A program made the translations under genes and the position numbers. The notes beneath the pieces are model-generated. The model worked only from the letters and a program-made list of their open reading frames with translations. It did no database searches and was not told the origin of the DNA. Positions 38,558 to 52,080 of a DNA stretch of 60,335 bases are shown here, piece by piece. Location: contig MVZH01000001.1 of assembly GCA_002068325.1 (NCBI GenBank), positions 1 to 60,335 on the forward strand, given 5' to 3'. The stretch is from Lentisphaerae bacterium ADurb.BinA184. Its GTDB lineage: Bacteria > Verrucomicrobiota > Lentisphaeria > Oligosphaerales > MVZH01. Positions within the stretch are counted from its first letter, which is position 1. Each line of letters starts with the position of its first letter.

Positions 38558-39246
38558 CCGTTCAGCTCGCGGCGGATGGCGCGGGCGGCCTCGGCCGGGC
38601 TCGGGGCCTTGAGGATGGGGCGGCCGACGACGATGTAGCTGGCGCCGGCGCGGGCGGCCTCGGCCGGGGTCATCACGCGCGCCTGGTCGTCGTGGGCGGC
38701 CCCGGCTGGCCGGATGCCGGGCACGACCAGCAGGAAGTCCGGACCGCAGGCCTGCCGCAGGGCCGCGATTTCGAGGGCGGAGCAGACGACGCCGGGGACG
38801 CCGGCCGCCTGGGCCAGGCGGGCGAGGCGGACGACCTGCTCCTCGGGGGAGGCGGTGATGCCAACGGCACGCAGCTCGGCGGCGTCCATGCTGGTCAGCA
38901 CAGTCACGCCGAGGACGATGAGGCCGGTTTCGCGGGCGGCGTCGGCAGCGGCCTTGAGCATGGCGCGGCCGCCGCTGGCGTGCACGTTGGTGATGTCGGC
39001 GCCCAGGCTGGCGGCGGAACGGACGGCCTGGGCCACGGTGTTGGGGATGTCGTGGAACTTGAGGTCGAGGAAGACGTGTTTGCCGGCGGCTTTCACGGTC
39101 TGCACGGCGGCCGGGCCGAAGCGGGTGAAGAGCTGTTTGCCGATCTTGTACCAGGTGACGGCATCGCCGAGGGTATGGACGACGGCGGCGGCCTCGTCCA
39201 GGGTAGCGACGTCGAGGGCGACGATGAGTTCAGTCCGGCTGGCCAT
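38554..39246 (-). CDS. pyrF: orotidine 5'-phosphate decarboxylase
   Basis: 230 aa with LIVALDV, WYKIGKQLF, HVFLDLKFHDIPNTV and IVVGRPI, the classic PyrF motifs. Confidence 0.95.
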   Translation of the reverse strand: MASRTELIVALDVATLDEAAAVVHTLGDAVTWYKIGKQLFTRFGPAAVQTVKAAGKHVFLDLKFHDIPNTVAQAVRSAASLGADITNVHASGGRAMLKAAADAARETGLIVLGVTVLTSMDAAELRAVGITASPEEQVVRLARLAQAAGVPGVVCSALEIAALRQACGPDFLLVVPGIRPAGAAHDDQARVMTPAEAARAGASYIVVGRPILKAPSPAEAARAIRRELNG

Positions 39247-39967
39247 GTTGGCTCCGTGCGGTTGCGGGTTCGCGGTCGGGGCGGCCGTCGGGCGGGGTGG
39301 CGGGCAGGGCAGTGCAGTCGCAGATGGCGCGTGCGAGGAGGGCGGCGAGGAGGGTTAGGACGGCGGCCACGGCAGTCATGAGAAGGGCCCGGAGGCCGCC
39401 GTGGACGTTGCCCCAGAGGGCGCGCAAGGACTCGACAGCCTTGATGCGGAAGAGGGCCTGTTCGCCGAGGATGAGCAGGCCCACGGTGATGACGACGGTG
39501 AGGTTGCCGTAGAGCATGAGGATGCGGGCGAGGCGCGTCCAGCCGACGGCGGCGCGGTCCCCGGCGGCGGCGAAGAGCATGGCGAGGAGTCCGCACAGGC
39601 GGAACAAGTAGACGGCGGCCAGGCCCACCGCCATGGCGGCCACGACGGACACGTACAGGTTCGCGGGCAGGCGGGCCTGCCACGCGAGGAAGGGGGCCAT
39701 CGCCAGCACGGCCAGGGCGTCAACCTGCAGCCAGCGCACGGCCGGCCCCCAGGCGGCCGGGGCGCCGCCGCCCGTGGCGGGCAGGGCGAGGGTGGCGACG
39801 GTGACGGCGGCCAGCGGGATCAAGGCGAAGAGGGTCGGGGGCGGCGGCAGGATGACGGTGTGCCGCATTTCGTCGGCGACGACCAGGACGACACCGGTCA
39901 GCCCGCACAGAATGAGGGTCAGGCACAGGGCCAGGCGCCGGGCATGGTGGTGGCCGAAGTCGTTCAT
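39230..39967 (-). CDS. integral membrane protein (about 6 TM helices), function unknown
   Basis: ATG 39967. Hydrophobic helices include LALCLTLILCGLTGVVLVVA and ILMLYGNLTVVITVGLLILG. The 3' end overlaps the pyrF start by 17 nt, suggesting an operon. Confidence 0.65.
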   Translation of the reverse strand: MNDFGHHHARRLALCLTLILCGLTGVVLVVADEMRHTVILPPPPTLFALIPLAAVTVATLALPATGGGAPAAWGPAVRWLQVDALAVLAMAPFLAWQARLPANLYVSVVAAMAVGLAAVYLFRLCGLLAMLFAAAGDRAAVGWTRLARILMLYGNLTVVITVGLLILGEQALFRIKAVESLRALWGNVHGGLRALLMTAVAAVLTLLAALLARAICDCTALPATPPDGRPDREPATARSQHGQPD

Positions 39968-40100
39968 GCGGTCGGAGGCGTCGGCATGGCGCAGGGGGAG
40001 GGTCGCACGGCGTCCGGGAGTGGGTGCCCGGCAATCCGGTTGCGTTGCGGGCCGGGGCGGCGGCCGGGGCCTCGGGGGCCGGGCTGGGCGAGGCGCACGG

Positions 40101-40496
40101 TCACAGCGATTCGACGTAGGCGACGTAGCGGCGCGGTTCGATCAGCAGCTCGAACTCCGCGGGCTCGTCGTATTCCATCTCCACCAGCCAGTGCTTGTAG
40201 GGATCGACGTGGATCAGGTCGGGCCGGTCGAGGACTTCGCGGTTGATTTCGAGGATGCGCCCGGTCAGGGGGATGGGCACGTGCTCGATGACCCCGGACG
40301 GCAGGTGGAGGTGGAAGCACTCGTCATCAATCTCCACCTCGTCGCCGACCATGGGCAGGTCGAGGCTGAGGATCTCGGGCAGTTCCTCCTCGCGGTAGTG
40401 TGTCATGCCGACGCGCGCGCGTTTCTTCCGCCCCGGCAGTTTTTCGACCCACATGTGGCGGAGGTTATAGAGGAGATTTTCAGGGCATTCCAGCAT
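40101..40496 (-). CDS. glycine-cleavage H-protein-like protein lacking the lipoyl-lysine
   Basis: This is the C-terminal 131 codons of track ORF 40101..43208, starting at ATG 40496 (MLECPENLLYNLRHMWVEK...). It aligns by eye to GcvH: HEW ~ HMW, VDLPEVG ~ LDLPMVG, PVSGEIVAVN ~ PLTGRILEIN, EPY..GW ~ DPYKHW. Confidence 0.75.
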   Translation of the reverse strand: MLECPENLLYNLRHMWVEKLPGRKKRARVGMTHYREEELPEILSLDLPMVGDEVEIDDECFHLHLPSGVIEHVPIPLTGRILEINREVLDRPDLIHVDPYKHWLVEMEYDEPAEFELLIEPRRYVAYVESL

Positions 40497-40615
40497 GGTT
40501 TTACCACACTCCTGAGCTTTCCTTGGCTGCCGCCTGTCCTGGTGGCGTCGGCGTCGGGGCCGTACACGTCCGGGAGCGGGTCTGCGCCAAGGTCGCAGCA
40601 GGCATTGGTTGGGGA

Positions 40616-40621
40616 TATAGT
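40616..40621 (+). promoter_or_regulatory. -10-like box TATAGT in the divergent region between the GcvH-like gene and the permease gene
   Basis: GGGGATATAGTACCC. It lies 44 nt upstream of the candidate TTG 40665 and 146 nt upstream of ATG 40767. Confidence 0.25.
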
Positions 40622-40766
40622 ACCCACTAAACGAGGCTGTGCAAACGGGAAGCCTGCGATTCCTTTGAGCTCCGACGCCACCACACGCAAGGCCGGGCTG
40701 CCGGCGCCGGCATTCACGCCGCCGCCGTCGCCCCGGCGCCGGTTCTCGCCGACGCTGTTCGCCTAC

Positions 40767-41834
40767 ATGGCCCGCTCCTTTCTGCATCCCCTCCTGGGGT
40801 GCGTGGCCGGGTTCTGCATCCTGTTCCTGATTGCCGACGTCTTCAACTCGCTGGACGAGTTCCTCGAAGCCCGCGCCTCGGTCGTTGACGCGCTGTCCTA
40901 CTACCTGCTGCTGGTGCCGCGCAACCTGGTGCATGTCGTGCCGATGGCGGTGTTGCTGGCGGTCAGCTTCATGATGAGCGGGCTGACGCGGCACCGGGAG
41001 ATCACCGCGATCCGGGGGGCGGGGTTGTCCATCGGCCGTGTGATGATGCCGGTGTGGCTGCTGGCCGCGCTGCTGGCGGGAGCCCTGTTCTGGCTGAATG
41101 AATCGCTGGGGCCGCGCTGCCTGGCCCGCGCCGAGGCGCTGAAGGAGCGGGTGACCCGCGGCGACGAGCAGCCCCGGCCGGCCGGGGTCTGCCTGGCCTA
41201 CCGCAACCGCCAGGCCCGCCGCGACTGGTTCTTCGAACGCTTCGACCCCAACGGACGGCAGTACGGCCTGACGGTCAAGCAGCTCGGCGACGCCGGCCAG
41301 CCCGTGCTCTGGGAACTGCGGGCGCGGGAGGCCGTCTATGCCGATGGACGGTGGACGTTCCTCGGCGGCAGCCGCTGGCGCTACGACAACGGCGAACTGC
41401 TGCCGACCGCCGAGGAGGCGTTCGAGACCCTGACCGAGCCGGGGCTGGACGAACGGCCGGCGGACATCTTCAGCAGCCTGCGGCCGGTTCACGAACTGTC
41501 GGCCTGGCAGATCGCCCGCGTGCTGTGGTTGGAACGCGACCTGCCGTCCAGCACCTCGCGTCTGCTGGCGACCACGATGTGGTACCGGCTGACGATGCCG
41601 CTGTCGTGCCTGATCGCCGCCCTCTACGGGGTCGGGATGTCGCTGGGGCGGGAGCGGGCCGGGGCGCTCCGGGGGTTCGGGCTGGCGGTGGGATGCGTGG
41701 TGCTGTACTATCTGGTCAGCCAAGTCTCGGTGCTGCTGGGGCGCCACGGGGGGTTGCCGCCGCTGCTGGCGGGCATCCTGCCGGCGGCGGGGTTCGCGGT
41801 GGACGGCCTGCGCCGGCTCCATCGGCGGCGGTAG
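40767..41834 (+). CDS. LptF/LptG-family (YjgP/YjgQ) permease
   Basis: This is the 3' part of track ORF 39633..41834. From ATG 40767 it reads MARSFLHPLLGCVAGFCILFLIADVFNSLDEFL..., with a periplasmic beta-jellyroll-like middle and C-terminal TM helices, which is typical family topology. The true start may be in-frame TTG 40665, because the usual L.RY.. opening (TLFAYMA) begins just upstream of the ATG. Confidence 0.8.
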   Translation: MARSFLHPLLGCVAGFCILFLIADVFNSLDEFLEARASVVDALSYYLLLVPRNLVHVVPMAVLLAVSFMMSGLTRHREITAIRGAGLSIGRVMMPVWLLAALLAGALFWLNESLGPRCLARAEALKERVTRGDEQPRPAGVCLAYRNRQARRDWFFERFDPNGRQYGLTVKQLGDAGQPVLWELRAREAVYADGRWTFLGGSRWRYDNGELLPTAEEAFETLTEPGLDERPADIFSSLRPVHELSAWQIARVLWLERDLPSSTSRLLATTMWYRLTMPLSCLIAALYGVGMSLGRERAGALRGFGLAVGCVVLYYLVSQVSVLLGRHGGLPPLLAGILPAAGFAVDGLRRLHRRR

Positions 41835-41870
41835 CCCCTGCACGCCGCCACCGCGGAATGCGGACACCGG

Positions 41871-41968
41871 AACGCCGAACGTGGAACGCCGAACGCCGAA
41901 CGAAGAGCGAAGAGCGAAGAACGAAGAACGCGGCGCGGAGCGCGGAGAACGCCGAACGTAGAACGCTG
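41871..41968 (+). repeat. degenerate heptanucleotide tandem repeat, 14 units (AACGNNG type)
   Basis: The units read aacgccg aacgtgg aacgccg aacgccg aacgaag agcgaag agcgaag aacgaag aacgcgg cgcggag cgcggag aacgccg aacgtag aacgctg. It is intergenic, between stop 41834 and ATG 42033. Confidence 0.85.
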
Positions 41969-42032
41969 ACACCTGACCCCAGCGGCGGCCCGCACTTGCA
42001 GGGTCTTGCCGATGCCTCAAGGAGCGACGACG

Positions 42033-43166
42033 ATGGATCTGCAACGCCTCGCCGAACGCGCGCGCGCCGCCACACAGAACCGGCCGGATGCCCCGGACGC
42101 CGTGCCGCCGCCGGAGACTGCCCCACGCCGCCGGCGCGGGAGGCTCACCCGGCTGCGCCTCACGATGTGGGCGGTCGCACTGGTGGCCCTGCTGGCCTTC
42201 CTCGAAATCCGGGTGTTCCGCCCGCGCTTCGGCGCGAAGGGCAGGCAGGCGGTCTCCCAGGCCGTGGCGGTGCCGCCGGGCGAGGCGGTGTCGGCGCTGG
42301 GAGCGGAGGGGCTGTCGCTGCGCGGGTTGCGCGAGGTCACACCCGCTTTCCTGGCGCCGCTGAGCGTACTCGGGCCGGAGGCGGTGAGCGCCCAGGCCGC
42401 CCAGAAGGTTGTCAGCCAGGAGAACCGGCTGCCGATCGAGGTCGAGAACAGCATCGGCATGCGGTTCCGCCTGATTCCGAACGGCAGTTTCCTCATGGGC
42501 AGCCCGGCCGAGGAGACGGGCCGCTGGGACGGCGAGGTCCAGCACGTGGCCGTGGTGGACGCGCCGTTCTACATGGGCGCGTTCGAGGTGACGCAGAAGC
42601 AGTGGCGCGCGGTCATGGGCGGCAATCCGTCGCGGTTCACCGGCGACAGCCGTCCGGTCGAGGAAGTGACCTGGTACCAGTGCCAGGAGTTTGTGCGCAA
42701 ACTGGCCGAGCGGGAGGGGCTGGCGAAATGGACGTACCGGCTGCCGACCGAGGTGCAGTGGGAGTACGCCTGCCGGGCGGGCGGGGGGACGGCGTTCCAC
42801 TACGGCAATGACCCGGCCAAACTCGGCGGGTTCGACTGGGTGGACGTCAACAGCGCCGGCCGCCCGCACCCCGTCGGCGGCCTCCTGCCCAACGGCTACG
42901 GGCTGCACGACCTGCACGGCAACCTGTGGGAATGGTGCGCCGACCCCTTCCGCAACTATCCGGGCTACACCGGCAAGGATCAGCCGGCCGAGGCGCTCGA
43001 CGGCTGGCGGGTGATCCGCGGCGGCAACTGGTACCTGCCCGCGGTGGATTGCCGCAGCGCGGCCCGCTCCCGCCTGAGCTCGACCTCGCACGGCAACATG
43101 CTGGGCTTCCGCGTCGTGCGCGTCATCCCCGAGCTCGCGGCGCCGGCCGAGTCCGCCGCCGAGTAA
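42033..43166 (+). CDS. membrane-anchored FGE-sulfatase (SUMF1/formylglycine-generating enzyme family) domain protein
   Basis: ATG 42033 follows an AAGGAG RBS. One TM helix (MWAVALVALLAFL). Family motifs: MRFRLIPNGSFLMGSP, PVEEVTWYQCQEFVRKL, YRLPTEVQWEYACRAG, NGYGLHDLHGNLWEWC, RGGNWY and GFRVV. Confidence 0.9.
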   Translation: MDLQRLAERARAATQNRPDAPDAVPPPETAPRRRRGRLTRLRLTMWAVALVALLAFLEIRVFRPRFGAKGRQAVSQAVAVPPGEAVSALGAEGLSLRGLREVTPAFLAPLSVLGPEAVSAQAAQKVVSQENRLPIEVENSIGMRFRLIPNGSFLMGSPAEETGRWDGEVQHVAVVDAPFYMGAFEVTQKQWRAVMGGNPSRFTGDSRPVEEVTWYQCQEFVRKLAEREGLAKWTYRLPTEVQWEYACRAGGGTAFHYGNDPAKLGGFDWVDVNSAGRPHPVGGLLPNGYGLHDLHGNLWEWCADPFRNYPGYTGKDQPAEALDGWRVIRGGNWYLPAVDCRSAARSRLSSTSHGNMLGFRVVRVIPELAAPAESAAE

Positions 43167-52035: not shown

Positions 52036-52080
52036 GGCCGGCTCCTGGGCGTGGGGCGCGGGGCGCGGGGCTTGGCCGGC

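Follow-up and report, generated by a model that had tools for sequence, protein, structure and literature searches.

A degenerate heptanucleotide array between a permease gene and an FGE-domain gene of a Lentisphaerae bacterium, probably an old microsatellite of a class dispersed through its genome

The locus considered here lies in a 60,335-nt stretch of DNA from Lentisphaerae bacterium ADurb.BinA184 (contig MVZH01000001.1 of assembly GCA_002068325.1), the whole of which is referred to below as the window. Two genes on the forward strand frame it: one for an LptF/LptG-family permease of 389 aa (40665–41834; identified with Pfam and by gene calls on other assemblies), and one for an FGE-sulfatase-domain protein of 377 aa (42033–43166; Pfam, with the exact protein recorded in other assemblies). 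They are separated by a 198-nt spacer, from the permease stop, which ends at 41834, to the FGE ATG at 42033, and a heptanucleotide tandem array takes up most of it. Between the array and the FGE gene is an AAGGAG motif resembling a Shine-Dalgarno (SD) sequence (42019–42024, forward strand, read directly), 8 nt upstream of the ATG and 50 nt downstream of the core of the array. Independent gene callers left the spacer uncalled on the other assemblies, and both flanking gene models agree; with the models matched elsewhere, the array follows the permease stop and ends 65 nt before the FGE ATG, just where the preliminary description had put it.

A 733-aa ORF at 39633–41834 was rejected as an over-extension; other assemblies call the 389-aa LptF/LptG protein there. 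Within the region of this ORF they also call a GCV_H gene (40101–40496, reverse strand), and a 245-aa gene is called on them at 39230–39967, again on the reverse strand. The window has a single other period-7 tract, with about 3.6 copies of GGGGCGC/GGGGCGT, at 52047–52071. The genome, at 69.5% GC, is rich in DUF1559-type and FGE/sulfatase proteins, the DUF1559 matches covering the N-terminal motif only.

The core array (41871–41968, assigned to neither strand) is 98 nt long and parses directly into fourteen head-to-tail heptads with the consensus A(A/G)CGNNG, a GAACGCC-type repeat on the forward strand. From 41871, the first seven units are AACGCCG, AACGTGG, AACGCCG (twice), AACGAAG, and AGCGAAG (twice); the second seven, to 41968, are AACGAAG, AACGCGG, CGCGGAG (twice), AACGCCG, AACGTAG, and AACGCTG. 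Positions 3, 4, and 7 are C, G, and G in all 14, with no exception. At a lag of 7 nt, the core matches itself at 69 of 91 positions (20,000 shuffles gave a mean of 28.5, a standard deviation of 4.4, and a maximum of 47), while at the remaining lags there are 14–32 matches, apart from 57 at the double period of 14. TRF resolves the tract into three period-7 sub-arrays, with weak 28- and 35-nt periods. Two more degenerate units can be added at either end without loss of register (GGAATGC and GGACACC upstream, TGACACC and TGACCCC downstream), for a full tract of 18 units at 41855–41980, likewise without strand.

Parsing, shuffles, and TRF thus all confirm the degenerate 14-unit repeat first described from the sequence. 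The sub-blocks listed with it were right for AGCGAAG and CGCGGAG, two copies each, and wrong for AACGAAG, of which there are two copies rather than one; the translated array does give the expected NAERRT-type peptide (NAERGTPNAERR...). The longest perfect run is two units, and three identical adjacent pairs are left. The tract shares with heptanucleotide long simple-sequence repeats (SSRs) the head-to-tail iteration of a 7-nt unit, in at least three copies and above chance.

It is far from alone. The 4.76-Mb assembly (575 contigs, 69.5% GC; the window is its contig C1, and other loci are given below as contig:positions) was surveyed for tandem periodicity. A sliding self-match scan found 111 period-7 tracts, against 0–9 for other periods from 4 to 12, and a scoring scan found 119 period-7 segments, against no more than 12 for any period not a multiple of 7. 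A laxer threshold raises the period-7 count to 177, for an overall range of 118–177 arrays; seventeen of them sit at contig ends, so this count is a lower bound. Several unit families are represented (GAACGCC, GGTGATC, TCGTGGG, GCAGATA, GGAGCAC, GGTGGAA, GGAGGGC, and GAACTCC), and the unit frequently changes stepwise along a single array. AACGCCG is the joint commonest unit, with perfect doublets in 22 arrays. The suggestion that the tract might belong to a dispersed repeat family is therefore borne out, since period-7 arrays number well over 100; the window array has both the dispersed copies and the genomic period-7 excess of heptanucleotide long SSRs. At 14–18 units it is long for the genome (median 6.7), and its degeneracy is far above average.

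Like heptanucleotide long SSRs, the arrays are predominantly intergenic: 83 of 118 are fully so by a crude, GC3-based gene finder, although just 17% of the genome is intergenic. Those that appear to be genic mostly fall within the first 3–15% of longest-ORF calls, where these are over-extended, or else in short ORFs that are spurious. The spacers that hold arrays are distributed near the spacer background, with 50 co-directional, 11 convergent, and 11 divergent. Within co-directional spacers, 21 arrays are no more than 50 nt from the upstream stop codon and 9 no more than 50 nt from the downstream start, an excess near gene ends that could hint at a function there. A common orientation for all unit families was sought by linking arrays through shared units, but was abandoned because the resulting chains contradicted each other; strand bias was therefore analyzed family by family. 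The GAACGCC family is oriented with and against transcription in a ratio of 7:4. The GCAGATA/GCAAATA family is 8:1 sense-strand in co-directional spacers, as other families are not, but the numbers are small.

Outside this genome, the exact (GAACGCC)2.7 pattern matched at least 117 stretches. The matches listed include Acidobacteriota, Verrucomicrobiota, Planctomycetota, Chloroflexota, Myxococcota, Actinomycetota, Pseudomonadota, Armatimonadota, and a Haloferax. Eighty such loci (556 kb) contain 94 period-7 arrays, of which 27 are built from other units, compared to at most 8 for other periods. In a sample of the phylum to which this genome belongs, (GAACGCC)3 was found in just 3 of 200 other genomes, and a reversed-pattern control in none. 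There are 25 period-7 arrays per Mb in this genome, about 17.5 and 13 in two relatives from the same family, with different units, and 5, 0, and 0 in relatives from other families of the order. These steep differences in density, together with the distant recurrence, indicate that array richness is lineage-specific, that turnover is fast, and that units recur in distant lineages.

The preliminary description had proposed a spacer-length or slipped-strand variable element here. The exact FGE protein is also encoded on contigs of JGI 3300010429, JGI 3300010346, and Logan SRR17648133, and one more, ENA UOWG01041796 from an activated-sludge metagenome, was found when metagenome contigs were searched with the left flank. 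Two of these four contigs match the window at 100% over about 6 kb; the other two stand at 99.84% and 99.7% identity. Runs and metagenomes containing this strain include Logan SRR17648133 and ERR14064717, JGI 3300010429, 3300010346, 3300010355, and 3300009838, and ENA ERZ761563. The spacer is 198 nt in all four, and so in five assemblies including the window. The single difference within the array is at 41932, where the window has C and ENA UOWG01041796 has G; there is no indel. No length variation was seen at the window array in these five consensus assemblies, which include strains diverged by 0.16–0.3%, and at this locus the proposal of a variable element finds no support. The accompanying remark that degeneracy argues against very active slippage is in line with the data.

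Sister arrays, compared between assemblies using flanking proteins as anchors, behave differently in two cases. Among the assemblies, GCA_022703545.1 and GCA_022704055.1 are near-identical to this one. At a GAACGCC-family array on C163 (C163:9900–10014), this assembly is exactly 7 nt shorter than three others, with zero mismatches across 6.5 kb of flank. A second GAACGCC-family array (C48:12969–13086) has alleles of 145, 131, and 96 nt, or minus two and minus seven units, with zero mismatches across 7.7–9.3 kb. Arrays on C16, C13, C7, and C83 showed no length change between the assemblies compared. The assemblies behind all of these unit-number differences are short-read consensus assemblies, in which repeats may be collapsed or mis-joined; all sister-array length differences are nonetheless of whole units, and the longer C163 length is agreed on by three independent assemblies. 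The C48 and C163 arrays are either hypermutable or else collapsed in assemblies. Taken at face value, the rapid change in unit number at these two means that arrays can change by whole units much faster than substitutions accumulate in the DNA around them.

The array at C45:16362–16453 is a special case. Other assemblies have three units more and a different right flank; three of them run from the array into an alpha-L-fucosidase gene, as does contig C284 of this assembly (C284:1–79). Contig C45 is probably a chimeric mis-join at the heptamer array. Two further differences between assemblies were seen along the way. Inside an rsmH-like methyltransferase gene, the 58 nt at C13:25512–25569 are unrelated to the 20 nt that two other assemblies have in their place, and may be an assembly artefact or mark a disrupted gene. 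GCA_022703545.1 has a 24-nt insertion, compared to this assembly, at C48:14145, inside a tRNA-methyltransferase (MnmA-like) gene, and the contig of another assembly stops exactly at this insertion point.

The constant length here, together with whole-unit changes in purer sister arrays, points to an old, decayed member of a slippage-prone class. The reading preferred (at a probability of roughly 80%) takes the tract for an old heptanucleotide microsatellite that stands alone and has decayed in part, one of the 118–177 intergenic period-7 arrays in this genome, without a specific regulatory role. Unit divergence fits local duplication followed by point mutation, near units being more alike than distant ones: over all arrays, mean mismatches between units rise from 0.66 at lag 1 to 1.26 at lag 5, and within the window array from 1.69 at lag 1 to about 2.5 at lags 6–7. 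Judging by assembled sequences, slippage is probably real for the family, whose members change by whole units. The array would have grown by strand slippage during replication or repair, and later point substitutions would have broken its register; this in turn would have lowered the slippage rate, and so might account for the fixed length in the strains compared. At present, it would most likely serve as a mere unstructured spacer of about 100–126 nt between the permease and FGE genes, with which it may be co-transcribed.

What neutral slippage alone leaves unexplained is the preference for period 7, and the recurrence of a few units across many loci and phyla. One response is that heptamer arrays are the product of a sequence- and length-specific process rather than neutral slippage debris. 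The process could be a polymerase-footprint effect, a heptad-reading protein, or a mobile cassette. Pointers in this direction are the spread of GAACGCC arrays over ten phyla or more, and to one archaeon, the dominance of a few related units within one genome, and the clustering of arrays directly downstream of stop codons. This seems unlikely, if less so than the more particular proposals below. If it is true, the window array is a decayed product of the process, with perhaps some remaining influence on FGE expression.

A more specific proposal, and a slightly more doubtful one, is that the array works in cis, as part of the mRNA leader or as DNA, and gives the ribosome or a heptad-reading protein, such as one of the cold-shock-type OB-fold proteins, a platform from which to tune FGE transcription or translation. 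It is compatible with the lack of structure: the spacer RNA fold is weaker than that of shuffled sequence (z = +1.25), with 182 of 200 shuffles folding at least as well, a result for which ideas of a hairpin, terminator, or riboswitch were dropped. A good SD motif 50 nt downstream would also suit a leader element. An Rfam scan of 41000–43000 at E ≤ 10 produced no match. Elsewhere, Nostoc reporter assays showed a change in recO promoter activity when heptamer repeats were deleted (10.1101/2022.06.06.494920), and a part in translation has been suggested for the repeats of Beggiatoaceae (PMC4679880). The arguments on the other side are from distribution. The GAACGCC family has no strand bias relative to transcription (7:4, as above), one genome has many unrelated unit sequences, and the array is not conserved: among the FGE loci of 11 relatives (46–55% protein identity), 10 have no array beside the gene, and the eleventh has a run of ATTCAGA, an unrelated unit, where its contig begins. 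We know of no binding protein for such a heptad array. Regulation of the FGE gene by the window array has left no sign that was found, and the initial reading of the tract as a promoter or leader element of this gene is not supported; against it are the relatives without an array, and the presence of arrays in every gene context without strand bias.

Less probable again is a contingency (phase-variable) element, in which the number of units would reset promoter spacing or leader length and so switch the FGE gene on and off. The unit length, not a multiple of 3, the position upstream of the FGE start codon, and the whole-unit changes in sister arrays are all as such an element would have them. 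However, contingency SSRs are long perfect tracts that are polymorphic in length, and here no perfect run exceeds two units, adjacent units differ by a mean of 1.69 mismatches, and four other consensus assemblies, including those of strains 0.16% and 0.3% diverged, have the same length as the window. A promoter and terminator consensus scan found no sigma-70-type promoter and no intrinsic terminator, by consensus sequences that do not cover the promoters of this lineage. The more than 100 arrays are also spread alike over convergent, divergent, and co-directional spacers, and the lack of an array beside the FGE gene in 10 of 11 relatives counts against this idea as well.

The array might also have once belonged to a hairpin with heptamer arms, or to a small cassette with a PF05635 (“23S rRNA intervening-sequence protein”) gene, and be the one arm left after loss of the gene and of the opposite arm. 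There is some association to build on: in this genome, period-7 arrays are found within 700 nt of three of four PF05635-type genes, and of the eight such genes in relatives, four lie between arrays of period 7 or 8, three of the pairs clearly inverted. At the window locus, though, there is no partner arm, no adjacent PF05635 gene, and only a weak fold. A search for an inverted partner array within 1.5 kb turned up none, with matches at chance level and in GC-rich coding DNA; the PF05635 genes of this genome are on contigs other than that of the window; a 198-nt spacer is too small for a lost gene; and relatives have no cassette at this junction. Genome-wide, just 2 of 37 neighboring array pairs scored as inverted, plus one borderline. 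A leftover arm is accordingly very improbable.

Array-bracketed PF05635 loci in this genome are at C144:7130–8287, where the flanking arrays are direct rather than inverted, and C2:21235–21866. The small array-bracketed PF05635 genes of relatives are at four loci, in two relatives. A relation between the count of PF05635 genes and array density, from six related genomes, is a lead only.

Lastly, a chance or compositional periodicity of GC-rich DNA, or a coding heptapeptide repeat, is effectively refuted: several reading frames do have long ORFs across the tract, which is usual at 70% GC, but the lag-7 self-match is more than 9 standard deviations above shuffles, the 7- and 14-nt changes in sister arrays would shift any frame and so rule out coding constraint, and the spacer is uncalled by independent gene callers.

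If the tract is a decayed microsatellite, it deserves annotation as a simple-sequence repeat, rather than as a regulatory element or an ORF, and the NAERRT-type peptides derived from it should be ignored by gene callers and readers alike. For assembly, heptamer arrays are break and mis-join points, as the seventeen at contig ends and the apparently chimeric C45 illustrate. This single locus is a small and ordinary finding; the wider survey adds another lineage rich in 7-nt arrays, with units shared with very distant phyla. Why bacteria should favor a 7-nt period is an old question, which the finding does not answer.

A literature search found no publications on heptamer arrays in this lineage, but there are several systems elsewhere with which they can be compared. 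Among them are the phase-variable SSRs of host-adapted pathogens such as Haemophilus (PMC12721329), where, as here, the tandem repeat precedes a gene and its unit length cannot be divided by three. Those repeats are perfect, have units of 1–5 nt, and vary within populations, while the window tract is degenerate and constant in five assemblies.

Another case is that of the TAACTGA direct repeats of marine Beggiatoaceae (MacGregor, 2015, PMC4679880), intergenic heptamers upstream of start codons with a patchy distribution over phyla. There, one unit is dominant, with two to six copies immediately ahead of the start codon; here there are many units, in all gene contexts. A cold-shock-type OB-fold protein has been put forward as a reader of the TAACTGA repeats, as speculation. 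The GGGAATC and GGGGA(T/C)T repeats of Xanthomonas and Nostoc (Rehm et al., 2015, PMC4692102) are also intergenic heptamers, found on both strands, often near the stop codon of the upstream ORF, and varying in length and sequence between close relatives. Their units contain G-runs and form G-quadruplexes, and the repeats are often paired in inverted orientation, whereas the window array is without a partner arm and, unlike heptamers of this GGGNATC type, has no GGG in its units on either strand. A preprint reports that heptamer repeats affect Nostoc rec gene reporters (10.1101/2022.06.06.494920). A mechanism has been established in none of these related cases.

A further comparison is with the STRR (short tandemly repeated repetitive) heptanucleotides of heterocystous cyanobacteria, known from Calothrix PCC 7601 (PMC4692102). 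They were reportedly described by Mazel and colleagues in 1990. They too are tandem heptamers scattered between genes, and a single genome has several families of unit. The differences are of phylum (the features of this genome suggest the PVC group), of GC content (far higher here), and of unit sequence (unrelated): with a non-cyanobacterial host, and units of GAACGCC and other types, the present arrays are not STRR in the strict sense.

The nearest match is with the long SSRs surveyed by Mrazek, Guo, and Shah. As that work is represented in later papers, heptanucleotides are the most abundant class of long SSR in many prokaryotes, of unknown function, and slippage related to the polymerase footprint was put forward to explain them (Mrazek et al., 2007, via PMC4679880 and PMC4692102). 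The features shared, so far as these citing papers describe them, are tandem 7-nt units, a period-7 excess, intergenic position, occurrence in larger GC-rich genomes, and, for the family at large, quick turnover of unit number and sequence. There is no difference of kind; this lineage stands out in having many unit families at once, and the window copy in being unusually long and unusually degenerate. The tract thus belongs to the over-represented heptameric long SSRs of bacteria, STRR-like in character, a class that is known but unexplained.
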